48,552 nt of DNA from a virus: UHGV virus genome UHGV-0142349. One strand, written 5' to 3'. This document shows positions 1,328-46,312 of the stretch, in pieces. The notes below the pieces were generated by a model that was given only the letters and a program-made list of their open reading frames with translations, did not search any database and was not told where the DNA came from. Each line of letters begins with the position of its first letter. Within the stretch, counting starts at the first letter, position 1. Made by a program: the position numbers and the translations under genes.

Positions 1328-1856
1328 GATTTTTAACAGCATTCTTGGAAAAGAGGGCGGCTATGTGGATCACCCTGACGACAAGGGAGGCCCAACAAAG
1401 TGGGGCATTACTCAGAGCACTGCCCGTGCTCATGGATACCGTGGCGATATGCGCGATTTAACCCGCGAACAGGCACTGGAAATCCTTGAGGCTGATTACT
1501 GGTACGGACCACGCTTTGATCAGGTTGCCGCATTATCCTCTGATATTGCCGCAGAGCTGTGTGACACGGGGGTGAACATGGGGCCAACAGTGGCGTCAAA
1601 AATGCTTCAACGCTGGCTGAATGTGTTCAACCTGCGCGGGAAGCTGTATCCCGATTTGGATGCAGACGGACGAATCGGTCCACGTACCATTAATGCGCTG
1701 CGTGCTTATCTTGGGAATCGGGGAAAAGACGGCGAACGGGTGATGCTGACGTCGCTGAACTGTACGCAGGGCGAACGCTATCTGGAGTTGGCGGAGAAGC
1801 GCGAGGCTAATGAGTCGTTTGTCTACGGCTGGATGAAAGAGCGAGTGGTGGTATGA
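1314..1856 (+). CDS. endolysin, GH108-type lysozyme with C-terminal peptidoglycan-binding region
   Basis: N-terminal motif EGGYVDHPDDKGGPTKWGIT typical of glycoside hydrolase family 108 phage lysins. Confidence 0.8.
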   Translation: MTKDEIFNSILGKEGGYVDHPDDKGGPTKWGITQSTARAHGYRGDMRDLTREQALEILEADYWYGPRFDQVAALSSDIAAELCDTGVNMGPTVASKMLQRWLNVFNLRGKLYPDLDADGRIGPRTINALRAYLGNRGKDGERVMLTSLNCTQGERYLELAEKREANESFVYGWMKERVVV

Positions 1857-2131
1857 CTGGTTTGAAGGCCGTTTTGTCATTTATTGGCACAATTATATTG
1901 GTTGCATTCGGCGCGTTTGGTTTTGGTCGTATGAAGGGGCGAGAAAAGGCCGAAGATGAAGCTGAAAAGCAGCGCATTAATGAGAATGCAGCCGCCGTAA
2001 AAGCCACTGCGGAGCGGCGTATAGAAGTGACAAAAGAGGTGGGGAATGTACAGCAGAGTGTTAACCATATGGCTGATGACGATGTTGATCGCGAGCTGCG
2101 GGAGTCGTGGAAGCGTCCCGGTGGTGGTTGA
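1853..2131 (+). CDS. i-spanin (Rz-like)
   Basis: N-terminal TMD then charged coiled-coil-like region; immediately after endolysin; overlaps stop of previous gene. Confidence 0.55.
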   Translation: MTGLKAVLSFIGTIILVAFGAFGFGRMKGREKAEDEAEKQRINENAAAVKATAERRIEVTKEVGNVQQSVNHMADDDVDRELRESWKRPGGG

Positions 2132-2255
2132 TACCGCCTGTGATTGGGTAAAGCCCATCTACCTGACTGATCACGACATCGATGTTATGGACCGCCAGAC
2201 AAAGAAAGATATTCTGGCTCATAACAGGGCATGGGAAATCAACTGCCGAAAGTAA
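2046..2255 (+). CDS. o-spanin (Rz1-like outer-membrane lipoprotein)
   Basis: Starts inside the i-spanin gene in another frame; signal peptide with lipobox L-I-A-S-C. Confidence 0.55.
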   Translation: MYSRVLTIWLMTMLIASCGSRGSVPVVVDTACDWVKPIYLTDHDIDVMDRQTKKDILAHNRAWEINCRK

Positions 2256-2286
2256 TATATATTTCTATAATTATATAAATATATAG
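2253..2286. repeat. AT-rich near-palindromic motif copy (TATAATTATATAAAT core)
   Basis: Shares TATAATTATA core with 7 other copies (3407, 35479, 40528, 41236, 41307, 45065, 46280). Confidence 0.5.
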
Positions 2287-2424
2287 TTACAACATTCTAT
2301 GCGCTTTTCTCATGGGCGCACGCATCAACCATGTTTGTCTGATATGCCGCCGCGCCCAAAAATCCTGAATTTATTGGCTGGGATTTTCGTGCGCGGCGCC
2401 ACACCAGACAAACAAATCAAATAT

Positions 2425-2500
2425 GGCCCCTTAGCTCAGTGGTTAGAGCAGGCGACTCATAATCGCACGGTCATCGGTTCAAATCCGGTAGGGGCCACCA
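2425..2500 (+). tRNA. tRNA with CAU anticodon (elongator type; tRNA-Ile2/lysidine-like or Met)
   Basis: 76 nt cloverleaf: acceptor GGCCCCT/AGGGGCC, D-arm GCTC..GAGC, anticodon loop CTCATAA, T-loop TTCAAAT, 3' CCA; G1-C72 pair argues against initiator; 5' half recalled as close to enterobacterial ileX. Confidence 0.85.
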
Positions 2501-2819
2501 ATTCACTCTCACACATAAAGATAAGCGCGGTGGAGTTACTTCTTCGTGCTCATCTTTATGCTCATCTTTATGCGTGCCTGGTGCGCATTTCGGGCGAACG
2601 TGGGGCTAAGTTACAGGCAGGGCCTGTTATCCGCAAAGGGGTAAAAGCTGGAGCGGCACGGAACTGTAGCCGTGTTACCAAAACAGCGTTGTCGGGCGAT
2701 ATCCGGCACACAACAGGCAAGGGCATTAATCAGTCTGGTTAGTGCCCTTTTCGTTGTGTTTGCTGTAGAGCTGGCCAGCGTTATGACTGCCGGAGATAAG
2801 CGCCGGAGACACAACTAAC

Positions 2820-3407
2820 ATGGAGGCAATTGCATTGTTTAATCTGATTTATGCAGATCCCCCCTGGGAATACAAAGACAAGTGTAAGGATGGGAATCGT
2901 GGCGCTGGTTTTAAGTATCCAACGATGAAAGCTGAGGATATTGCTCGTATTCCTGTCTGGCAGCTTGCTAATCCTGAATCGTGTTTGTTGGCCATGTGGT
3001 GGGTTCCGACTCAGCCAGAAGAAGCGTTGCTGGTGGTGAAAGCATGGGGATTCAGGCTGATGACCATGAAGGGCTTCACATGGAACAAATGTGGTAGCCG
3101 ACAACCAGATAAGCTGGTGATGGGGATGGGGCATATGACTCGTGCAAACAGTGAAGATTGCTTGTTTGCGGTAAAAGGCAAACTGCCGACCCGCCTTGAT
3201 GCGGGGATCATTCAGTCGTTTACATCGCCTCGTCTGGAGCATTCTCGGAAGCCTGATGTGGTTCGTGACAAGCTGGTAAGGCTGTTAGGTGATGTTCCCC
3301 GTATTGAGCTGTTTGCTCGCGGTGATTTACCTGATGGCTGGCATGGCTGGGGCAACCAGTGCAATGGAGGTATCCAGTTGCATGATGCTCTCTGGCAAGT
3401 GGCATAG
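2820..3407 (+). CDS. MT-A70 family N6-adenine DNA methyltransferase
   Basis: Catalytic DPPW motif in IYADPPWEY context; size and layout typical of phage Dam-like MT-A70 enzymes. Confidence 0.75.
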   Translation: MEAIALFNLIYADPPWEYKDKCKDGNRGAGFKYPTMKAEDIARIPVWQLANPESCLLAMWWVPTQPEEALLVVKAWGFRLMTMKGFTWNKCGSRQPDKLVMGMGHMTRANSEDCLFAVKGKLPTRLDAGIIQSFTSPRLEHSRKPDVVRDKLVRLLGDVPRIELFARGDLPDGWHGWGNQCNGGIQLHDALWQVA

Positions 3408-3519
3408 AATTATATAATTATATATTTATATAAAAATTGCTTTACAGGTGGGAAAAAATTTCCTATGGTTATACCCGAAACCGAGCGATACCCGCCCTGG
3501 CTAAACCGGAGATAACCCG
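3407..3519 (+). promoter_or_regulatory. promoter-leader cassette copy A (AT-rich motif, -35 TTTACA, 17-bp spacer, -10 TATGGT, conserved 5' leader)
   Basis: Near-identical to 35479..35591 and 45065..45180; ends at ATG 3520; GGAGA Shine-Dalgarno. Confidence 0.6.
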
Positions 3520-3789
3520 ATGAAAGTACAAGACCGTGAAGTAGTAAAAAGCCTCCTGCAATACCTGACCTCAAAAAACCTGACGGGCAGCGTTGAGTTC
3601 CGTGAAGCGTTAAAACATTTCAACGTCACTACGGTTTATCGTTGGGAAAACAAACATTCTGAAAGACCGTATGTGGTGGATGTTTTTGCGCCTGATATTG
3701 AGTGCGGTTTTGAGCGCCATTCATTCAAAAAGAAACATTCCGCTGATGTTTTTTGTGAGGTTGTATGTGCGGCAGGAGATGATGAGTGA
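3520..3789 (+). CDS. hypothetical protein (cassette-driven)
   Basis: 89 aa ORF starting right after conserved leader with SD. Confidence 0.5.
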   Translation: MKVQDREVVKSLLQYLTSKNLTGSVEFREALKHFNVTTVYRWENKHSERPYVVDVFAPDIECGFERHSFKKKHSADVFCEVVCAAGDDE

Positions 3790-14980: not shown

Positions 14981-16024
14981 ATGTCGAATATTGATATTTT
15001 TGAACGACGTACAATGCTTGAGCCTGTTATTCAGAATTTCAAGGCTCGTCGTTTTCTTCTTCGTACCTTTTTTCCTGGTGTTCAGACCTTTAATACAAAG
15101 AAAGTTGATCTGGATTTTGTTCGCGGTGGCCGTACTATGGCTCCGTTTGTTGGTAAAGGTTTTGGCTCAAAAACCGTTGAGCGACGCGGCTTTGTAACGA
15201 GAACTCTGGAGCCACCACTTGTTGCACCTGATTTGGTAACAACAGCCGAGCTGCTTTTAAACAGGCTTCCGGGTGAGAATATTTACAACGCAAAATCGCC
15301 AGCAGAACGAGCCGCCGCGCAATTAGGTAAAGATTTGCTTGAGCTTGATGAAATGGTTAACCGCCGTGAAGAATGGATGTGTGCACAAGTCTTGTTTACG
15401 GGGCAGGTTGATATTGTTGGTGAAGGAGTGGATGACACAGTTTATTTTTGGCCTGAAGAGGAAGGAGATAAACCATATCTTGAACTGACAGGTGATGATT
15501 TATGGAGCGCAGCAAAATCAGATCCGTTGGTCAATGTTCGCAACTGGAAACGTCGGGTATCACTAACTTCAGGTTTTACACCTCGTGTTGCCGTAATGGG
15601 CGCAAAAGTTGTTGATGCCTTCGTTAAAAATGAAGCAGTAACTAAATATCTTGATAATCGCCGAAAAGAGCTTGGGTATATTGAGCCTAAGGAGTTAGAA
15701 GAAGGCGTAACTCATTATGGCAATCTTGAAGGTGTCGATTTTTATGGTTACGACGAACTTATTCGCAATGATAAAACAGGAAAACCAGAACCATTAGTAC
15801 CGGAAGATAAGATCCTCTTTGGCTCTCCTGGTCGAGGAACGATGCTGTATGGTGCTGTAGAGCTTGTAGATGACGCCGAAAAGACTCTGACGATTGTTGA
15901 GTCGCCACGAGTTCCAGACACCTGGGTAACTCGTAAGCCGGCTGGCCGTTATGTTGCCATGAAGTCATCTCCACTGCCTAATCCTGGTGTGGCTGATGCC
16001 TATCTGGTGGCTAAGGTGGTTTAA
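14981..16024 (+). CDS. major capsid protein (lambda gpE-like)
   Basis: 347 aa, position after decoration protein. Confidence 0.8.
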   Translation: MSNIDIFERRTMLEPVIQNFKARRFLLRTFFPGVQTFNTKKVDLDFVRGGRTMAPFVGKGFGSKTVERRGFVTRTLEPPLVAPDLVTTAELLLNRLPGENIYNAKSPAERAAAQLGKDLLELDEMVNRREEWMCAQVLFTGQVDIVGEGVDDTVYFWPEEEGDKPYLELTGDDLWSAAKSDPLVNVRNWKRRVSLTSGFTPRVAVMGAKVVDAFVKNEAVTKYLDNRRKELGYIEPKELEEGVTHYGNLEGVDFYGYDELIRNDKTGKPEPLVPEDKILFGSPGRGTMLYGAVELVDDAEKTLTIVESPRVPDTWVTRKPAGRYVAMKSSPLPNPGVADAYLVAKVV

Positions 16025-19013: not shown

Positions 19014-19535
19014 TTGAGCAATCAAATTCCTGAGAGACTTATTAACTTTACAGTATACGGTGAGGGAAACCGTATTATCGGTGTTGCTGACGCAAAGCTG
19101 CCATCAATTGAGATGATGACAGAAACTGTTAGTGGTGCAGGTATCGCTGGAGAGCTTGAGAGCGGAACGCTGGGGCATTTCAAACCAATGACTGTCTCTC
19201 TTAAATGGCGAACTCTGACCTCTGCTGGTACAAAATTATTTCTATCCTCATCGCATCAGGTAGATTTTCGCGGTAGCCAGCAGGTTTATGATGCAGGAAC
19301 AGGAAAATATAAAACGGTTCCTATTCGGGCTTCAATGAAGCTAAACCCTAAAAAACTGGATTTAGGTTCGCTACAGGTGGCAAAGGCTACTGATTCAGAG
19401 AATGAATTTGAAGTTCTCTATATCAAATTATTTATTGATGGAAAAGAAGTCTTGGAAATTGATAAGTTGAACTTTATTTGTATCTTTGATGGTGAAGATA
19501 TATTAAAAAGCGTTCGTGATGATTTAGGTTTATAA
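19014..19535 (+). CDS. tail tube protein
   Basis: 173 aa directly after sheath (P2 FII-like). Confidence 0.75.
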   Translation: MSNQIPERLINFTVYGEGNRIIGVADAKLPSIEMMTETVSGAGIAGELESGTLGHFKPMTVSLKWRTLTSAGTKLFLSSSHQVDFRGSQQVYDAGTGKYKTVPIRASMKLNPKKLDLGSLQVAKATDSENEFEVLYIKLFIDGKEVLEIDKLNFICIFDGEDILKSVRDDLGL

Positions 19536-19980: not shown

Positions 19981-22773
19981 ATGGCCAGCAATAAGAACTT
20001 TAAGCTGGCTTTTGAAATTGGCGGCAAAGTTGCCGCCTCTCTCCCCAAAAGTTTTACTACAGCTAATCAGGCTGTTGCTAAATTAAATGCCGAGCTTGCT
20101 GGATTAACGAAAGAACATGGGGAAATTCAAAAGCTACAATCTGTAAAAGTAAAGGTTGGACAGACTGCCCTCGAATATCATAAAGCTGCCGCTCGCGTTG
20201 AAGAGTTACAGAAGCAAATAAAAAACACGGCCAATCCAACCAGAGCGATGCTTCGTGACTTTGAGAAGGCAAAAACACATTCATCGAATTTACGAGCATC
20301 ACTACGTTCTCAGCGTGAAGAACTGGCCGCTTTAAAGTCTGCCTATCAGGGAGCTGATACATCTGCCAGAGCTTTGGCCTCAAGAGAGAAAGAGCTTAAA
20401 GCCAGCATTGATCGTAATCGTGAGGCTCAGGTCCGTAGCGTTGAGCAGGTTAACCGCTACAGAACGGCTTTGGCTTTAGCCAGAGCAAATGTTCAGCAAG
20501 TGAAAAAACAGCAGGAGGAACTTAACCGGGCATTAGAAAAACAACGTATTGATAAAATTAACAGCTATAAAAATGCGTTGGCTGAAGCACGGAAAAATGT
20601 TCTTGCAGTAAAACGTGCTCAGGAGGAGTTAAACCGCGCGTTGGAAAGGCAGCGTGAATTGAAGCGAGAGCATCTTGGTGAGGCAAAGAGTCAACTTGTA
20701 AGGTCAGGATTACAAACTGGTGCTGTAGCGGCTGGTGCATTTGCTGCTGCTAACAATGCAGCAAATTTCAATCGTGAAAACAAAATGATTGGTCTTACGG
20801 CAGATATGAAGCCGGAAGAAGTTCAGGCGATGGGGCAGGCGATGCTTGTTACCGGAACGGCCACCAACCAGTTTGCATCTGATATTCAGGCCGCTCAGGG
20901 TTTTCTCGTCGCTGCTGGGCAGGATTATAAAGAGGCTCAGGCGAATCTACTAACTATTGGGCGAACAGCTACAGCTACTGGCTCTGATATCCTCGATGTC
21001 TCGAAAGCATCATTTACATTAAGTGACTCATTGAAGATTGATCCATCTCAAATGAAGTCTGCAATGGGGATTCTGGTTCAGGCAGGGAAAGAGGGAAACT
21101 TTGAATTTAAAGATATGGCCAAAAATCTTCCTGTGCTTGGTGCTCAGTTCCAGGCATTAAAAATGGGAGGTAAAGAAGCCGCCGCGACGATGGGGGCAGC
21201 TTTGCAGATAGCTCGCAAAGGTGCTGCAACTTCGGATGAGGCTGCTAATAATATGAACAACTTTTTGGCGAAAATACTTTCCCCTGAAACCCTAAAAAAA
21301 GCAAAGAAAAATTTCGGTGTAGATTTATATAAAATTGTCACAACAGCGCAGAAAAAAGGGAAGAATCCATTCGAAGCTGCAATGCATTCTGTCATGAAAA
21401 TGACTAAGAACGGAGATCAGAAGTTACTTGGTGAGCTATTTGGCGATATGCAGGTTCAGAACTTTGTTCGTCCGATGATTCAAAACTGGAAGGAATACCA
21501 GAGAATCAAAGCAACATCTCTTGGTGCTGGAAGTGCTGTTATTGACCGCGATTTTGCCAACATAACGAAAGACAATGCGGAGCGATTGAAACAATTACGT
21601 ATTCAGGCTAGCAATGCATCATTAAGTTTTGGTCAGGCCTTGCAACCTGCTTTGAATGCCGCGCTTAGTGTTTTGGTTCCGCTGATTACAAAAATTAGTG
21701 AATTTGTAGCTAACAACCCCAATTTTGTGTCTCAGATTGTGATGGCGGCAGGTGCGTTTCTAACCATGAAAAGTGTGGTTATAGCGTGTAGGGTAGCTAT
21801 GCTGGCTTTATCTGTAGCGACAAAGCTAACACCCTTCGGGTGGATTCAGATGGCTATATCTGCGCTGGTTGCCGCAGGAATATTGCTCTATCAGAACTGG
21901 GATAAGATCAGAGATTATGCTGTCAGAGTTTGGCCTTCTGTTAAGGAATATACAGTTAAATCGTTTGAAGCTATAAAAAACTTTATCTTAAACTTTGATC
22001 TCAATGGATGGATTATATCTATGTTTGGTAAAGCATGGGATTATCTTTCCAACATAAACTGGAGTTCGGCAGGAGTAAGAATTTACAGTACATTAATTAG
22101 TGCTTTTAAATGGATGTCTCCGCTTCCGTTCTTAATTAAAGCATTTAAACTTACAACAAATTACCTTTCTGGTATTAACTGGAGCGAAACAGGAAAGAAA
22201 ATCATAGATACACTGGTATCTGTTTTTATGCGTTTTTCACCAGTTGGACTCTTTATAAGAGCATTCCAATCTGTAACGGCTTATTTGTCTGGAATAAACT
22301 GGAGTGAGTCAGGCGCAAAAATAATTGAGACGTTAATCACTGGGATAAAATCAAAAGCAAATGCTTTAATTAATGAAGTGAAAGGCGTTTTTTCTTCTGT
22401 ACGTGAGTATTTACCGTTCTCTGACGCGAAAAAAGGTCCATTCTCACAGCTAACAAAGTCAGGTGGTGCAATAATGACTACTCTGGCATCAGGTGTTAGC
22501 AGGAATAACAGCTTACAGAATGCAATAGCAACCAAGTTCGGGCAATCAAATTTATCACCTCACGGGATATCTGCCGCCGGGACTTCTGGACCTCGCCAGA
22601 ACGTTAATGCTGTGACTGGTGGAATAACCTATTCACCTGTAATCAATCTTCCGGCTGGTTCACCAAAGGAAACTGAGGCGGCAGCTAAAAGAGCATTAGA
22701 TGCGGGATATTCTGATTTTGAGAAGAAATTGAGTGCTCATATGTTCCAACAACGGAGATTAAGTTTTGGATGA
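19981..22773 (+). CDS. tail tape measure protein
   Basis: 930 aa, coiled-coil N-terminal part, hydrophobic mid segments. Confidence 0.85.
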   Translation: MASNKNFKLAFEIGGKVAASLPKSFTTANQAVAKLNAELAGLTKEHGEIQKLQSVKVKVGQTALEYHKAAARVEELQKQIKNTANPTRAMLRDFEKAKTHSSNLRASLRSQREELAALKSAYQGADTSARALASREKELKASIDRNREAQVRSVEQVNRYRTALALARANVQQVKKQQEELNRALEKQRIDKINSYKNALAEARKNVLAVKRAQEELNRALERQRELKREHLGEAKSQLVRSGLQTGAVAAGAFAAANNAANFNRENKMIGLTADMKPEEVQAMGQAMLVTGTATNQFASDIQAAQGFLVAAGQDYKEAQANLLTIGRTATATGSDILDVSKASFTLSDSLKIDPSQMKSAMGILVQAGKEGNFEFKDMAKNLPVLGAQFQALKMGGKEAAATMGAALQIARKGAATSDEAANNMNNFLAKILSPETLKKAKKNFGVDLYKIVTTAQKKGKNPFEAAMHSVMKMTKNGDQKLLGELFGDMQVQNFVRPMIQNWKEYQRIKATSLGAGSAVIDRDFANITKDNAERLKQLRIQASNASLSFGQALQPALNAALSVLVPLITKISEFVANNPNFVSQIVMAAGAFLTMKSVVIACRVAMLALSVATKLTPFGWIQMAISALVAAGILLYQNWDKIRDYAVRVWPSVKEYTVKSFEAIKNFILNFDLNGWIISMFGKAWDYLSNINWSSAGVRIYSTLISAFKWMSPLPFLIKAFKLTTNYLSGINWSETGKKIIDTLVSVFMRFSPVGLFIRAFQSVTAYLSGINWSESGAKIIETLITGIKSKANALINEVKGVFSSVREYLPFSDAKKGPFSQLTKSGGAIMTTLASGVSRNNSLQNAIATKFGQSNLSPHGISAAGTSGPRQNVNAVTGGITYSPVINLPAGSPKETEAAAKRALDAGYSDFEKKLSAHMFQQRRLSFG

Positions 22774-27104: not shown

Positions 27105-29483
27105 GTGAGTAAATTATTATTTACGATGACTGACGCCGGGCGTCAGGAGCTGGTTAATGCCAACAAAACAGGAACAAATAAAGTTGAGATTGTTTCTGTT
27201 GGTTTAGGTAGTAGATATTATGTCACGTCAACTTCACAAACAAATATAACAAACGAAATAAAACGACTTACCACAATAGGTGGCAAAGTTGTTTCCCCTG
27301 ATACAATTCATGTAACAGCGAAGGATGATAGTAAAGATGAGTATGTTGTCCATACAATAGGATTGTATACGAATAAGGGTACGTTGTTTGCTGTATACTC
27401 ACAAGAACAAGCAATAATAAATAAAGCATCATCTACTATCGCTTTAATATCAAGTGATATAGCAATTAAAACTCTTGATACTAAAAATATTACATTTGGT
27501 GATATTGAGTTTATTAATCCTCCCGCGACCGAAACTGTTGTTGGGGTGGCAAGATTTGCTAATGAACAAGAAATTGATGCAGGTACAGATGATTCCCTTG
27601 CTGTTTCAGCAAAACGGCTTAAGCAAGCCATTGTGAAACATGAGCAATCACGTAATCATCCTGATGCAACTTTAACCTCAAAAGGTTTTGTTCAACTTAG
27701 CAGCGCCACCAATAGCACGTCTGAAACGCTTGCTGCGACGCCTAAGGCTGTTAAGGCAGCATATGACCTGGCTAATGGCAAATACACCGCACAGGACGCT
27801 ACCACAGCGCGAAAAGGGATTGTTCAGCTCAGTAGTGCCACCAACAGCACGTCTGAAACGCTAGCAGCAACACCAAAGGCTGTTAAGGCAGCGTATGATC
27901 TTGCGGCCGGAAAGGCTCCGTCCAATCACACGCATTCGTGGGAGCAGATAACAAATGTGCCTGTAGCTTCACTGACTGTAAGGGGAATAACTCAGCTCAG
28001 TAGTGCCACCAACAGCACGTCTGAAACACTGGCCGCGACATCGAAAGCTGTAAAGGTGGTAATGGATGAAACGAACAAGAAAGCGCCCCTGAACAGTCCG
28101 GCGCTGACCGGAACACCAACAACACCAACTGCGCCAAAAGGTACTAACAATACTCAGATCGCAAGCACGGCTTATGTTATGGCTGCGATCGCTGCCCTCG
28201 TGGACTCGTCGCCTGACGCGCTGAATACGCTGAACGAGCTGGCTGCGGCGTTGGGCAACGACCCGAATTTTGCGACCACCATGACTAACGCGCTTGCGGG
28301 TAAGCAACCGAAAGATGCCACCCTGACGGCGCTGGCCGGGCTTGCTACTACGGCAGACAGGTTTCCGTATTTTACGGGGAATGATGTCGCCAGCCTGGCA
28401 ACTCTGACAAAAGTCGGGCGGGATATTCTTGCGAAATCGACCGTTGCCGCCGTTATCGAATACCTCGGTTTACAGGAAACGGTAAACAAGGCTGGTAACG
28501 CCGTGCAAAAGACAGGCGATACCTTGTCCGGTGGACTTACTTTTGAAAACGACTCAATCCTTGCCTGGATTCGGAATACTGACTGGGCAAAGATTGGATT
28601 TAAAAATGATGCCGACAGCGACACTGATTCATACATGTGGTTTGAAACAGGCGACAACGGCAATGAATATTTCAAATGGAGAAGCAAACAAAGCACCACA
28701 ACAAAAGACCTGATGAATCTTAAATGGGATGCTTTGTATGTTCTTGTCAATGCCATTGTAAATGGCGAAGTCATATCAAAATCAGCAAACGGCCTACGTA
28801 TTGCTTATGGTAATTACGGATTCTTTATTCGTAATGATGGTTCAAATACATACTTCATGTTGACAAACTCCGGTGACAACATGGGGACTTATAACGGATT
28901 AAGGCCATTATGGATTAATAACGCTACTGGCGCTGTTTCGATGGGGCGTGGCCTTAATGTTTCAGGGGAGACACTTTCAGACCGTTTTGCTATTAACAGC
29001 AGTAATGGTATGTGGATTCAGATGCGCGATAACAACGCTATCTTTGGGAAAAATATAGTTAACACTGATAGCGCTCAGGCGTTGCTTCGCCAGAATCACG
29101 CCGACCGAAAGTTCATGATAGGTGGACTGGGGAACAAGCAATTTGGCATCTACATGATTAATAACTCAAGGACAGCCAATGGCACCGATGGTCAGGCGTA
29201 CATGGATAATAACGGGAACTGGCTTTGCGGCTCGCAAGTTATTCCCGGAAACTATGGCAATTTTGACTCCAGATATGTGAAAGATGTTCGACTTGGTTCA
29301 CAGCAATATTATGGAGTGAACAACTGGCAAACATGGAATTTCCAGTGCCCGTCAGGTCATGTATTGTCTGGTATTAATGTTCAGGATACAGGGTCCAACT
29401 CTGCCGATAATATAGCGGGCGTTTATTACAGACCCGTTCAAAAGTATATAAATGGCACCTGGTATAATGTAGCGAGCGTTTAA
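27105..29483 (+). CDS. tail fiber protein (constant N-terminal part plus invertible C-terminal part)
   Basis: 792 aa; three tandem copies of [19 protein letters not shown] motif; crossover repeat at 28462..28490 inside the gene. Confidence 0.8.
27688..28065 (+). repeat. three ~80-bp direct repeats inside tail fiber gene
   Basis: Repeated nucleotide blocks at about 27688-27772, 27820-27900, 27985-28065. Confidence 0.7.
28462..28490. repeat. left inverted repeat (crossover site) of invertible segment
   Basis: ACCTCGGTTTACAGGAAACGGTAAACAAG; reverse complement matches 31505..31533 with 2 mismatches. Confidence 0.75.
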
Positions 29484-35470: not shown

Positions 35471-35478
35471 TGCTCACA

Positions 35479-35591
35479 GAATTATATAATTATAGATTTA
35501 TATAAAAAGTGCTTTACATGTGGGAAAAAATTTCCTAAGGTTATACCCGAAACCGAGCGATACCCGCCCTGGTTAAACCGGAGATAACCCG
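35479..35591 (+). promoter_or_regulatory. promoter-leader cassette copy B
   Basis: Near-identical to copies at 3407 and 45065; -35 TTTACA, -10 TAAGGT, conserved leader with GGAGA SD. Confidence 0.6.
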
Positions 35592-35972
35592 ATGAGCATG
35601 ATTAAAATCCGCAAAAACGCTTTCCTTAAAATTCAAACTATCCTGGCTGGTTCTGTTGGCGTGATTTGCCGTTCTTCCTCAAGCCGCATCGATGACTGCT
35701 ACGATGATGAGTATCGTGTGTCCTCATGCGATGAGGCTTTAACCTGGCTGAAGGAGAATCAGGAACGTGCCCAGGTATATCTGGAAACAGAGAACGGCAA
35801 TCAGATGCTGCGTATTAGCGGTCGTTATGGATTTGAAACTACATTCATGGCCTATTTTAATCAGGCTTACTTTGACAAGGAGTTGGCCTGGTACACTGAT
35901 CGCATGAGCAAAAGCGAGCCAGCCCCGATTACACCGCCGAACAATAAACCATTTTTATTCCTCGTTAAGTAA
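35592..35972 (+). CDS. hypothetical protein (cassette-driven)
   Basis: 126 aa ORF. Confidence 0.5.
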   Translation: MSMIKIRKNAFLKIQTILAGSVGVICRSSSSRIDDCYDDEYRVSSCDEALTWLKENQERAQVYLETENGNQMLRISGRYGFETTFMAYFNQAYFDKELAWYTDRMSKSEPAPITPPNNKPFLFLVK

Positions 35973-37683: not shown

Positions 37684-38952
37684 TTATGGTCTGCTTTTCT
37701 GTGCCAGCTTATCAGCACATGTTTTTATCAGATCCTGTAGTGTCCTGGCTGGCAGGTTTGCATCCAGAACGCTGAGTATGCTGTTGTGATCAGCCTGGTC
37801 GACTACTTTGCCTGTCGGTGGTAGTAGCTTGAGCTGAGGATTCAGGTCCTCGTCAAAGCTGATAAGTGCTCTGGCGTTCCTGAGCAGATCAAGAAGTAAG
37901 GCTGATATCACATTTTCCTGAGTCATTGCTGGCAGACTTAGCGCCGCTTTAGTTTTCTCCGTCGCCTTGTCAAACTCTTTGATTAGTGTCTTGCGGTAGT
38001 TCGGTTCCGTTAATAGCCGATTATGCTCTGTTGCCGCGCGGATAATCGTTTTTTCTTGGTACAGTCGTTTAGCCAGATCACGCTCGTACTGTGTTTTTAA
38101 CACGCTGCTGATAGCGTTAAAGGCTTCAATGTAGGCCAGCTTGATATCTTTTACGCCTGGACCGTCGATGCTCTCCATGAGCAAGGTAAATCCGTCTTTT
38201 GTCATGCGATAGATTGTTATTTCGCGGTCGCTTCCTTCCAACGGTCGTTGCTCTTTAAAGAAATGACGCGCCGCAGCTGTGCGAGGAATGCGTAACGCAT
38301 CGATGGCCATAACGATGGAATTGTTTGTGGTGCTGAATGCCTGGGCAACATCGGCCGAGGTTGTGAGTGGCTCGTTATTGCACACCTTAATGTAAAACAT
38401 CGGTTTGGCGTTGAGCGTATCGACAACCTCACGAGCATTGTTTGGCGAGACGGTTACGGTCGCGGCCGTTTGCGCGTTCTGGTTGAAGTAGCAGTCTTCC
38501 AGCCGTTCGAACACATCCCACGCTTGGTTAGTTTCAAGCATTTTGGCGTGACGTGCAGCCCCGCGTTCTGTCCAGAGAATGAGGGAGCGAACGTTACGGG
38601 CGATTTTCACAGAGTGACTTTTAGTTACCTTGTGGTTAACAGAGTAGTTTAAAACTACTCTGTGCTCGTCGCTCTCTCTTTTAGAGGGGGCGTCATTAAC
38701 TGAATCTCTTAAAGAGTTTTTGTTCTTCACATCATTATCTTGAGTCACTTTGTGCTTTAACTCTCGAAGTTCGTTACCTTCAATTTTGAAGTAGTGCTTA
38801 CCTTCAATGAAGCGTTCCTTATTCTCATGATGATTTTGTCGAATGCGTACAGGAGATACGCCGTAAAGCTGTGCCAGTAACTCGGTAGTAATGACAGGGA
38901 TTTGGTTATGCAGGATAGGCTGTAGGGTGTTAACGGTCGGAAGCGTTTTCAT
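37684..38952 (-). CDS. antirepressor (KilA-N/ORF6N-like N-domain, Ant-like)
   Basis: 422 aa; N-terminal ITTELLAQLYGVSPVRIRQNHHENKERFIEGKHYFKIEGNELRELK resembles ORF6N/KilA-N. Confidence 0.65.
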   Translation of the reverse strand: MKTLPTVNTLQPILHNQIPVITTELLAQLYGVSPVRIRQNHHENKERFIEGKHYFKIEGNELRELKHKVTQDNDVKNKNSLRDSVNDAPSKRESDEHRVVLNYSVNHKVTKSHSVKIARNVRSLILWTERGAARHAKMLETNQAWDVFERLEDCYFNQNAQTAATVTVSPNNAREVVDTLNAKPMFYIKVCNNEPLTTSADVAQAFSTTNNSIVMAIDALRIPRTAAARHFFKEQRPLEGSDREITIYRMTKDGFTLLMESIDGPGVKDIKLAYIEAFNAISSVLKTQYERDLAKRLYQEKTIIRAATEHNRLLTEPNYRKTLIKEFDKATEKTKAALSLPAMTQENVISALLLDLLRNARALISFDEDLNPQLKLLPPTGKVVDQADHNSILSVLDANLPARTLQDLIKTCADKLAQKSRP

Positions 38953-39176: not shown

Positions 39177-39435
39177 TCGAGGCTAATCAAATGGTGGTGA
39201 GCCGTACAGGGTTAGCCTTACCGGACACAATGACGAACCGGCGCGGATTTCTCCGCCCCTGTACGACCCACCATAATTTGGGCGTAACAGTGCTCTACGC
39301 ATAAAAAAACCGCTAACGCGGTATGCGCCATCGTGTTATTCAGGAGGCTAATCCCGACCGTAGATTTTGCTACGGCTCGGAAAGTGTCCACCAATGGCGC
39401 ATTCATGTCAATACGGCGGGATTTTAACAGAGACA

Positions 39436-39498: not shown

Positions 39499-39893
39499 TT
39501 CGTGCTGATCGGATTCGCGGTCCTTTCAGCATTACGTTGTTGTATAAACAACCACGCAAGCACAAGCAGCAAATTGATTTTACTCAAAAGGTAATAATAG
39601 TCCACTATTATACATCAAAAAATTGTGGTTCTTGTTGTGTCAGCAAACTCACAGATTGTGGGTAGGTTACTGATTTTGTGAAAATAAACTGTTTTTTTCG
39701 TTTAATTTCTTTCCTATTACTAATCTTAAAATAATCGTAAAATACCTGTGGACCTTCCCGCCGATTCGCACCCGGGCACCGACTTTAGGGGAGGATTTCC
39801 TGTTGCCGTACATGCAAGCACAAGCAGCCGTGCTTGCTCTCGCGTTGTTTTCGTCGGTGGGGATGCCGTGAAACGGCCTGTAAGGGCCATACA

Positions 39894-40016
39894 ATGAAAA
39901 AATACTGTATGTGTATTTTTATCGTTGTTACTGGAGCTTTGTTTACGCCACATGGGGAGGGTTGGAAGATTACTGATAACGCTCTGAATGTGACGATAAA
40001 CATTAGCAGCAAGTAG
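39894..40016 (+). CDS. small hydrophobic protein (40 aa), candidate type I toxin-like peptide
   Basis: MKKYCMCIFIVVTGALFTPHGEGWKITDNALNVTINISSK; followed by terminator at 40022..40045. Confidence 0.3.
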   Translation: MKKYCMCIFIVVTGALFTPHGEGWKITDNALNVTINISSK

Positions 40017-40021
40017 CGATT

Positions 40022-40045
40022 AGGCCCCTTCGGGGGCCTTTTTTA
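40022..40045 (+). terminator. rho-independent terminator
   Basis: ggcccc-ttcg-ggggcc then TTTTTT. Confidence 0.65.
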
Positions 40046-40527: not shown

Positions 40528-40563
40528 TTATATAAATCTATAAAACTATAATTATATATTACG
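40528..40563. repeat. AT-rich near-palindromic motif copy
   Basis: TTATATAAATCTATAAAACTATAATTATATATTAC. Confidence 0.5.
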
Positions 40564-41235: not shown

Positions 41236-41340
41236 TTATATAATTATATAAATCTATATTTATAGAACGAGGTAAGCATAACCAACTTTTTGGCGGATGA
41301 AAAGCGTTTTATATAATTATATAAATCTATAATCATATAA
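41236..41340. repeat. two direct copies of AT-rich motif upstream of parA (candidate centromere/operator)
   Basis: TTATATAATTATATAAATCTATA at 41236-41258 and 41308-41330. Confidence 0.55.
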
Positions 41341-45011: not shown

Positions 45012-45064
45012 AAGTGTCATTTTGAGCTGTTTTGATGGTGTGTAGACATCGGGAACATCGAAAA

Positions 45065-45180
45065 TCTATAAATATATAATTATAGATTTATATAAAAAGT
45101 GCTTTACAGGTGGGAAAAAATTTCCTAAGGTTATACCCGAAACCGAGCGATACCCGCCCTGGTTAAACCGGAGAAATCTG
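45065..45180 (+). promoter_or_regulatory. promoter-leader cassette copy C
   Basis: AT-rich palindrome, -35 TTTACA, -10 TAAGGT, conserved leader; diverges only in last 7 nt before ATG. Confidence 0.6.
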
Positions 45181-46248
45181 ATGAATAAACAAGTAATTAT
45201 TTCTGACTGGATCAACAACCCTAACAGCCTGTTAAGCACTGATACTGGCTACCTATTACGCCATGTTAATGGTCGTATGGTCAAAAGCGATGAGCACGAA
45301 ACCTTTTTCTTTGTTGAAGACGATGGGCGCATCTATGAGGATGGTTACTCTTATGAAGCCCAAACTGGTTGTATCCCTGCGGAGCTGGTGGACGTAACAG
45401 AAGATCTGCGCAAAGCATGGCTTGAACAGCAGCAGCGCGGAGATGATTACGTAAACACCTATCAGGAACGCCAGAACGCGCGTCTTGCCCGATATATTGC
45501 TCGTGCAGAAAAAGCCAGAAAAGAAGGTGCGGTAGCGCATAAGCGAGCGCATGACCTGTTGGATGTGATCCCGTTAGGCCAGCCGATTTTAGTTGACCAT
45601 TATAGCGCGAAAGGCCATCGCCGCCGTTTGTCTAAAGCTGATGCGTTATTCAGAAAAGCGTTTGTTGAATGCGAAAGTAAAGCATCACACTACGAGAGCA
45701 AAGCCGCAGGTGTTGGTCGTAATGGAATTTCGTCTGATGATCCTGATGCGCTATTTAAGTTGCTTCGTAAGCTGCAAGGCTGCATGAAGTCACACGTCAA
45801 AATGAAGGCCGCAAATAAGGCCATTCGCAAATACAAAAAAGACCAATTACAGCAGCTTTCTGCATTAATCGATCTCAGGTTTACAGAAAGCGAAGCCAAA
45901 GAGTTACTGGCCGGAGATTTCTGTGGGCACATCGGATTCCCTTCATACGCACTGAGCAACAATAAGGCCGAAATCAAACGACTACAGAGCCGTATTAAGG
46001 AGCTTGAATCGGTCAAGTCTGTAACAGGAGCACAGCGCGAAGAATACGACGGCTTTTCTATGGAGATAGATCCAGAGGATAACCGCATCCTGTTTTATTT
46101 CCCTGGCAAACCAGAGGCAAACATTCGTTCGCTGCTTAAATCACGCGCCTTTAAGTGGAGTCCAACCCGTAATGCATGGGTTCGTAAGATTACTCCAAAC
46201 GCCCTGGCTGATGCCCGATATCTGAAAGAATCGCTATTGAAAGCCTGA
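45181..46248 (+). CDS. hypothetical protein (cassette-driven, 355 aa)
   Basis: ORF begins right after conserved leader; no family recognised. Confidence 0.5.
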   Translation: MNKQVIISDWINNPNSLLSTDTGYLLRHVNGRMVKSDEHETFFFVEDDGRIYEDGYSYEAQTGCIPAELVDVTEDLRKAWLEQQQRGDDYVNTYQERQNARLARYIARAEKARKEGAVAHKRAHDLLDVIPLGQPILVDHYSAKGHRRRLSKADALFRKAFVECESKASHYESKAAGVGRNGISSDDPDALFKLLRKLQGCMKSHVKMKAANKAIRKYKKDQLQQLSALIDLRFTESEAKELLAGDFCGHIGFPSYALSNNKAEIKRLQSRIKELESVKSVTGAQREEYDGFSMEIDPEDNRILFYFPGKPEANIRSLLKSRAFKWSPTRNAWVRKITPNALADARYLKESLLKA

Positions 46249-46257
46249 CAGTAAGCC

Positions 46258-46281
46258 TACGGCGGGATGTCTCCCGCCGTA
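46258..46281 (+). terminator. hairpin terminator
   Basis: tacggcgggatgtctcccgccgta. Confidence 0.45.
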
Positions 46282-46312
46282 TATAGAATTATATATTTAT
46301 ATAAATGTATAA
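46280..46312. repeat. AT-rich near-palindromic motif copy
   Basis: TATATAGAATTATATATTTATATAAATGTATAA. Confidence 0.5.

Follow-up and report, generated by a model that had tools for sequence, protein, structure and literature searches.

A tRNA-Ile2-type gene in an AUA-rich Escherichia coli phage-plasmid and its probable role as an additional AUA decoder

The stretch of DNA analysed here (the window, 48,552 nucleotides) is a near-complete phage-plasmid of Escherichia coli, and it contains one tRNA gene, with anticodon CAT. Judging from its sequence, this gene is very probably a phage-plasmid copy of the minor isoleucine tRNA (tRNA-Ile2, ileX/ileY type), which would add to the supply of a scarce AUA decoder in an AUA-rich genome. 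Phage-borne tRNA-Ile2 genes are already known and the gene in the window is an ordinary one, an identical gene being already annotated as tRNA-Ile in RefSeq. The gene and its surroundings are listed in Table 1.

The closest relatives of the window are circular non-mobilizable plasmids of ~47-50 kb, such as NZ_CP032259.1 (49.9 kb), and the Yersinia phages vB_YpM_39, 41 and 44 (GenBank OR545053-OR545055) are likewise close. The gene content of these relatives comprises a contractile-tail virion, a lysis cassette, RepA, ParA and a RelE/ParE toxin-antitoxin pair. One relative with full annotation has genes for RepA, ParA and an invertase-type recombinase, and none annotated as an integrase. The non-coding region adjoining the tRNA was found in 61 PLSDB plasmids (57 from Escherichia, three from Salmonella and one from Klebsiella), 58 of which have the tRNA gene. 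At 99% identity or more the gene occurs in 52 E. coli records, and all E. coli relatives examined retain it. The paper on the pseudolysogenic Y. pestis phage HQ103 makes no mention of a tRNA (PMC11177050).

Table 1. Features at and around the tRNA gene, and related elements elsewhere; positions are those of the window unless another record or locus is named
Feature	Position	Strand	Evidence or remark
AT-rich block of 8-bp-periodic TATAnAnT units; candidate operator/promoter for the following RNA	2255-2297	+	Repeat comparison, Salmonella alignment
Spurious 147-aa ORF over hairpin, tRNA and trailer	2299-2742	+	No Pfam match; frame not conserved; uncalled in RefSeq
Long imperfect hairpin, ~33 pairs	2332-2414	+	Fold of 2287-2424, -49.2 kcal/mol, z = -4.98
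tRNA-specific cassette (tRNA and trailer)	about 2416-2578	+	Boundaries from Salmonella alignments
tRNA gene, tRNA-Ile2 (ileX-like) type, 76 nt, CCA encoded	2425-2500	+	ARAGORN, Rfam, alignments, cloverleaf covariation
Anticodon CAT; C34 is the predicted lysidine site	2458-2460	+	ARAGORN; lysidine step predicted from TilS pairs
Trailer hairpin directly 3' of the tRNA, in the tRNA-specific cassette	2514-2560	+	Folding; Salmonella alignments
12-nt tandem duplication, GCTCATCTTTAT x2	2548-2571	+	Alignment with four relatives
Conserved structured non-coding region, cassette to terminator	2584-2718	+	Folding; alignments
Intrinsic-terminator-like hairpin (2719-2749) and T-run	2719-2759	+	Stem kept by compensatory G-C to A-U change in Salmonella relatives
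MT-A70 methyltransferase gene	2820-3407		Begins 60 nt past the terminator-like element
AT-rich TTATATAA-like / TATAnAnT arrays, at least eight, intergenic	2255-2294, 3402-3449, 35474-35505, 40528-40559, 41236-41267, 41309-41340, 45064-45095, 46281-46312		
C4 antisense RNA	39190-39278	-	Rfam, 70.8 bits, above gathering score
isrK	39303-39376	-	Rfam, 65.7 bits, above gathering score
ryfA	39748-40044	+	Rfam, 143.5 bits, above gathering score
~135-nt structured element	Salmonella plasmid NZ_CP044178.1 (L008) 2674-2817; L012 610-753; L017 1495-1638; L018 1490-1633; L019 1482-1625; loci L020-L098		

ARAGORN calls exactly one tRNA in the whole window, and Rfam RF00005 matches it with 67 bits against a gathering score of 29 (E = 1.6e-12), which confirms the canonical tRNA with a CAU anticodon that had been read at this place from the letters alone. 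The acceptor stem has seven base pairs, from G1-C72 to U7-A66, and is followed by A73 and an encoded CCA. The D stem is GCUC/GAGC, the anticodon stem consists of G27.A43, G28-C42, C29-G41, G30-C40 and A31-U39 with the loop CUCAUAA, and the variable loop has 5 nt. In the T stem (A49-U65, U50.G64, C51-G63, G52-C62 and G53-C61) the loop is UUCAAAU. The only non-standard pair of the molecule is G27.A43. A comparison of eight distinct sequences, Ile2-like and Met, found the cloverleaf 97% paired and ten pairs changed on both sides; neither column shuffles nor slid registers, used as controls, came near the real score. A natural variant on pTD225C4_47 has C13 changed to U, which still pairs with G22.

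[quoted passage not shown] Positions 1-42 are the same as in the chromosomal tRNA-Ile(CAT), and the resemblance of the 5' half to tRNA-Ile2, stated in the earlier note, is thus correct. The eight differences fall at positions 43-44 and in the T arm, where G49-C65 is replaced by A-U and U51-A63 by C-G, both by changes on the two sides, and one pair becomes a wobble. RefSeq labels the 100% identical gene on NZ_CP032259.1 as tRNA-Ile. Annotation rows were also sampled across the ranking of 6,060 matching E. coli records, and 30 out of 30 carry this label, the 89.5% identical chromosomal copies and the 94.7% identical P1-like copies among them. PGAP, for its part, relies on the isotype models of tRNAscan-SE.

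The pairs C4-G69 and C5-G68 are the identity elements by which E. coli TilS separates tRNA-Ile2 from tRNA-Met (PMC12514573, PMC11947777, PMC2500205, PMC1635315), a definition traced to Ikeuchi et al. 2005, as cited in PMC12514573, PMC11947777 and PMC2500205. The window tRNA has both pairs, whereas E. coli tRNA-Met has U4-A69 and A5-U68 at these acceptor positions, and both are kept in all the phage-borne relatives that were aligned (P1-like, Stx2 ileZ, Pectobacterium phage Ymer, Yersinia phage TG1 and Klebsiella phage KLB13). The elongator tRNA-Met is recognized by TmcA (ac4C) through C27-G43, C30-G40 and G44 (PMC2500205). None of these three determinants is found in the window tRNA, which has G27.A43, G30-C40 and C44; in the host tRNA-Ile2 the first of these positions is occupied by G27.U43, a negative determinant for TmcA (PMC2500205). 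Regarding the initiator tRNA, its marks are a C1xA72 mismatch, A11-U24 and three consecutive G-C pairs at 29-31/39-41 (PMC1635315). Initiator tRNA-fMet is ruled out by G1-C72, C11-G24 and C29 G30 A31; the earlier note had based this on G1-C72, and the absence of A11-U24 and G29-G31 now adds to it. Nureki and colleagues reportedly placed, in 1994, the IleRS identity elements outside position 34 at A73, U12-A23, C29-G41, A35, U36, A37 and A38, all of which are present in the window tRNA.

We give almost no credence to the alternative that the gene is an elongator tRNA-Met providing extra AUG decoding. The anticodon is CAT and ARAGORN does call a tRNA-Met, but this label is based on the anticodon only. 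A tRNA-Met label is also given to the same or related genes in the Yersinia phage records and in many records of other phages, in contrast to the tRNA-Ile label of the identical gene in RefSeq. Unmodified tRNA-Ile2 is itself said to be a substrate of MetRS (Muramatsu and colleagues, in 1988); nevertheless, the identity of 57/77 to tRNA-Met against 68/76 to tRNA-Ile(CAT), the C4-G69/C5-G68 pairs in place of U4-A69/A5-U68 and the lack of all three TmcA determinants led us to reject this assignment. Codon usage does not favor it either, as ATG is rarer in the phage (18.9 per 1000 in the near-identical plasmid L005) than in the host (23.9 per 1000). The proposal of a tRNA-Ile2 isotype is therefore upheld by the RefSeq label, the identity values, the TilS pairs and the missing TmcA determinants; neither a Met isotype nor a lack of AUA enrichment was found.

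Compared with known tRNAs, the window gene shares with E. coli tRNA-Ile2 (ileX/ileY type; copy between mug and nfeF) the length of 76 nt, the CAT anticodon, C4-G69/C5-G68, A73 and the encoded CCA, as well as an identical acceptor stem, D arm, anticodon loop and positions 27-42. It differs in having AC instead of UU at 43-44, A instead of G at T-loop position 59 and the T stem AUCGG/CCGGU instead of GCUGG/CCAGC, and in lying on a phage-plasmid within a phage-specific non-coding frame. The elongator tRNA-Met of E. coli, present in two copies in the Met-Leu-Gln cluster upstream of asnB, has the same CAT anticodon, loop CUCAUAA, G1-C72 and A73, but it is 77 nt long and has U4-A69, A5-U68, C27-G43, C30-G40 and G44. 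The tRNA-Ile of P1-like elements (e.g. pUSDA5905_1) is closer, at 72 of 76 positions (94.7%); it also belongs to a phage-plasmid of E. coli, is labelled tRNA-Ile in RefSeq and shares A43-C44, A49-U65 and C51-G63, which the host copy lacks. The two differ at four bases (C6/U6, A26/U26, U50/C50 and A59/G59), and the P1-like family is of ~95 kb, against ~48 kb here, with an SPFH gene and dnaB as neighbours of the tRNA. The P1-like gene lies near tRNA-Asn and tRNA-Thr, whereas the window tRNA has no companion tRNAs; according to the P1 genome paper, P1 reportedly carries three tRNAs. The ileZ gene of Stx2 phages (ileZ-argN-argO, upstream of stx2) is also a CAT tRNA labelled tRNA-Ile, 84.2% identical, with C4-G69/C5-G68, a non-Watson-Crick 27.43 and a position at the head of the late genes. 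Unlike the window element, which has none, Stx2 phages have two tRNA-Arg genes for AGA and AGG, although these are the codons most over-represented in the window. A literature search for ileZ/argN/argO gave no match, and the support for ileZ comes from GenBank annotation.

Genes of the tRNA-Ile2 type are widely labelled tRNA-Met in phage records (OR545053-OR545055, NC_050153.1, OP748252.2 and many others); the copy of a Pectobacterium phage with this label is 100% identical to the chromosomal tRNA-Ile(CAT) of E. coli. The practical value of the assignment is mainly one of annotation, since it corrects the tRNA-Met labels and an ORF call matching phrog_23857 (see below). With a tRNA-Ile2 label, this phage-plasmid family of ~48 kb would, like P1 and Stx phages, bring its own AUA decoder and depend on the host TilS, which is relevant to the prediction of host range and late-gene expression and to recoding and engineering. 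It opens no new question on tRNA biology.

Codon usage was analysed in 74 genes of the window (14,037 codons), comprising RefSeq calls mapped from a near-identical plasmid and long ORFs in the gaps, and in a host sample of 47 RefSeq genes from 50 kb of the E. coli chromosome. The comparison of AUA frequency suggested in the earlier note gave a clear difference: ATA makes up 16.2 per 1000 codons and 25% of Ile codons in the window, against 3.2 per 1000 and 6% in the host sample (chi-square p = 4e-29). Within the window, the morphogenesis genes (9832-30012) have 21.5 ATA per 1000 (33% of Ile) and the rest 11.5 per 1000 (18%; p = 4e-6). In the baseplate J gene the ATA frequency rises to 51 per 1000, and of the six ATA-ATA tandems all but one are located in morphogenesis genes. 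When the ATA share of Ile is set against a neutral expectation from third-position composition at four-fold sites, the phage stands at 79% and the host at 28%.

The idea that a phage copy could support AUA-rich late genes is borne out in so far as AUA is enriched five-fold and is most frequent in the morphogenesis genes; a specific tie between this richness and the tRNA did not emerge. Enrichment over the host sample is 9.4x for AGG and 6.3x for AGA, against 5.0x for ATA, in an element without a tRNA-Arg gene, and the G+C content is 44.5% in the window against 51.2% in the host sample. Because AGG and AGA are enriched even more without a phage tRNA-Arg, the ATA richness may simply reflect the lower G+C. 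In the Salmonella relative pAR-0407-1, which lacks the tRNA, ATA amounts to 11.8 per 1000 against 16.6 in the window over 42 orthologues (29% less). Its AGA and AGG, taken over whole gene sets, are also below those of the window by roughly the same proportion, and its G+C content is 47.4%; since AGA, AGG and G+C shift in parallel, the comparison gives no specific support to AUA co-adaptation. ATA is missing from the 346 codons of the major capsid gene (14981-16024) and occurs once among the 172 of the tail tube gene (19014-19535), while the structural genes neighbouring them have 30-60 per 1000, suggesting that AUA is still avoided where expression is highest, despite the phage tRNA. It is plausible that the tRNA relieves a heavy AUA load, but the data do not show that the load evolved because of the tRNA.

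The tRNA lies in a non-coding region that starts where the lysis cassette ends, at 2255. The AT-rich motif copy that had been noticed just upstream of the tRNA corresponds to the AT-rich block at the start of this region, one of at least eight intergenic copies, and its 41-nt core is identical in Salmonella pAR-0407-1. The long hairpin that follows ends 10 nt 5' of the tRNA and has no T-run. It is kept in the Salmonella relatives with four compensatory pairs and, as these relatives lack the tRNA, it belongs to the backbone and not to the tRNA cassette; from its predicted fold it is possibly a processing site of the RNase III type or an attenuator. All Rfam matches in the flanks were below threshold and at chance level, among them rydB (24.8 bits, with a gathering score of 50) and, for the hairpin, microRNA models. 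In the region between the cassette and the terminator, pESBL3215 has lost ~100 nt (about 2592-2694 of the window) between two TCGGGCGA repeats; part of this conserved region is thus dispensable in at least one natural plasmid. The terminator-like element is likely the 3' end of the tRNA-containing transcript.

A scan of 1800-3000 found no consensus sigma-70 promoter and, for this reason, the route of transcription is one that we infer: a + strand transcript, begun at the AT-rich block or reaching the tRNA by read-through from the lysis cassette, would contain the tRNA and end at the terminator. Processing may then rely on host RNase P and 3' nucleases trimming the tRNA, in which the CCA is already encoded. 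The host TilS is expected to recognize C4-G69/C5-G68 and to convert C34 to lysidine, which would switch charging from MetRS to IleRS and decoding from AUG to AUA. Any benefit would presumably come from the extra copy raising the amount of a scarce tRNA in a genome with five times the AUA use of the host, above all for tail, baseplate and packaging genes.

The 147-aa ORF that overlaps the tRNA had been judged spurious, and this view is sustained. It has no Pfam match, and neither RefSeq nor the Yersinia phage records call a gene there. Relatives with 97-98% identity have, from the same start, a product of 99 aa with a different C-terminus. The GCTCATCTTTAT duplication and a 1-nt deletion, which together add 11 nt, shift the frame in the window, and both are absent from the four relatives compared (vB_YpM_41, NZ_CP032259.1, pTD225C4_47 and pESBL3215). 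With the frame shifting in near-identical relatives, no Pfam match and no RefSeq call, a real protein was rejected. No ORF across the P1-like tRNA copy reaches 30 aa. Residues 16-101 of the ORF, from the part over the hairpin, tRNA and trailer, match phrog_23857, of unknown function, with E = 3e-49; this family was probably built from ORFs mis-called across the same RNA region.

Alignment with two Salmonella relatives shows that the tRNA-specific cassette is replaced there by ~380 nt of unrelated non-coding sequence between conserved flanks; a third Salmonella plasmid has the same replacement sequence, and no tRNA was found in the 44.5 kb searched of pAR-0407-1. We consider it unlikely, although worth stating, that this phage-plasmid family has a slot dedicated to the expression of small RNAs, for which the tRNA and at least one other RNA would be interchangeable cargos, with a role of the tRNA beyond codon supply. 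If so, tRNA-Ile2 would join the broader set of tRNA-like RNAs carried by phages, for example to counter host defences.

A related proposal, which we regard as quite improbable, is that the tRNA acts mainly outside codon supply, as a spare that sustains translation when the host tRNA-Ile2 is cleaved or depleted by a defence or stress nuclease, as a decoy or as a processing module in such a slot. The tRNA does sit within a conserved non-coding frame (AT-rich block, long hairpin, cargo, 3' region and terminator), a different structured RNA takes the cargo position in the Salmonella relatives, and the high ATA content has no specific tie to the tRNA. There are also described cases of phage tRNAs acting against defences that target tRNAs. 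However, the anticodon stem-loop (27-42) is identical to that of the host, and there is hence no sign of changes for escape from an anticodon nuclease; all the identity elements for normal decoding are kept, and we know of no nuclease targeting tRNA-Ile2.

Very improbable, in our view, is a functionless cargo, either hitch-hiking or decaying after its acquisition by recombination, for example from a P1-like plasmid or a host ileX copy, or left as the remnant of a tRNA-linked attachment site. At the level of the family the cassette is dispensable, since the Salmonella members lack the tRNA, but the gene is conserved at 99% or more in the 52 E. coli records. The 94.7% identity to the P1-like copy, with a few flanking bases in common, and the lineage-specific 12-nt duplication just downstream would also suit such a history; against it, the gene is full length, every stem is intact and the changes relative to the host copy keep pairing. 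An attP or integration remnant in particular was rejected, as nothing is missing from the gene and the element is a plasmid whose fully annotated relative has RepA and ParA and no annotated integrase. The preferred reading thus remains that of a tRNA-Ile2 copy contributing to AUA decoding.

The first ~135 nt of the Salmonella replacement form a strongly conserved structured element that has four helices and is closed by a GUUGUGAC/GUCACAAC stem; the element is absent from the window. At 88-89% identity it occurs in unannotated gaps of unrelated temperate phages and in a Serratia plasmid, and its exact 25-base core is present in 79 IMG/VR contigs. RNAalifold predicted 35 pairs from 57 distinct sequences, 14 of them with compensatory changes, and the paired parts alternate with highly conserved single-stranded stretches. 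Rfam 15 gave no match at E <= 1 for the Salmonella locus or at E <= 0.1 for three other loci, and a literature search for the core gave none. Taken together, the sequence comparisons suggest that the element is probably an unclassified phage non-coding RNA. On the Serratia marcescens plasmid p2 (CP083756.1, L019), a 127-nt tRNA-like Rfam match of 46.4 bits lies at 1234-1360, for which ARAGORN makes no call. It has a tRNA-type acceptor stem (GUUGUGACG...), a D arm, a T arm and an enlarged middle, and is located 140 nt upstream of the ~135-nt element, with similar closing stems. An intrinsic terminator follows the ~135-nt element on this plasmid, at 1645-1670.

Some further observations were made in the window. 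The AT-rich arrays flank parA on both sides, and three copies extend into a 121-nt repeated leader (3403-3523, 35475-35595 and 45065-45185; 87-95% identical) that runs into the start codon of the next gene. The arrays have the appearance of operators or promoters under a single global regulator. The 82-aa and 124-aa proteins adjoining parA, among which a ParG-like ribbon-helix-helix binder was sought, have no Pfam match. The C4 antisense RNA, isrK and ryfA matches are grouped between the gene of a Rha-family regulator (37684-38400) and the parA operon. The tape-measure gene has three diverged in-frame 45-nt tandem units at 22038-22322, with a spacing of 120 nt, and the tail-fibre gene has three diverged in-frame 93-nt tandem units at 27680-28072, with spacings of 132 and 168 nt.
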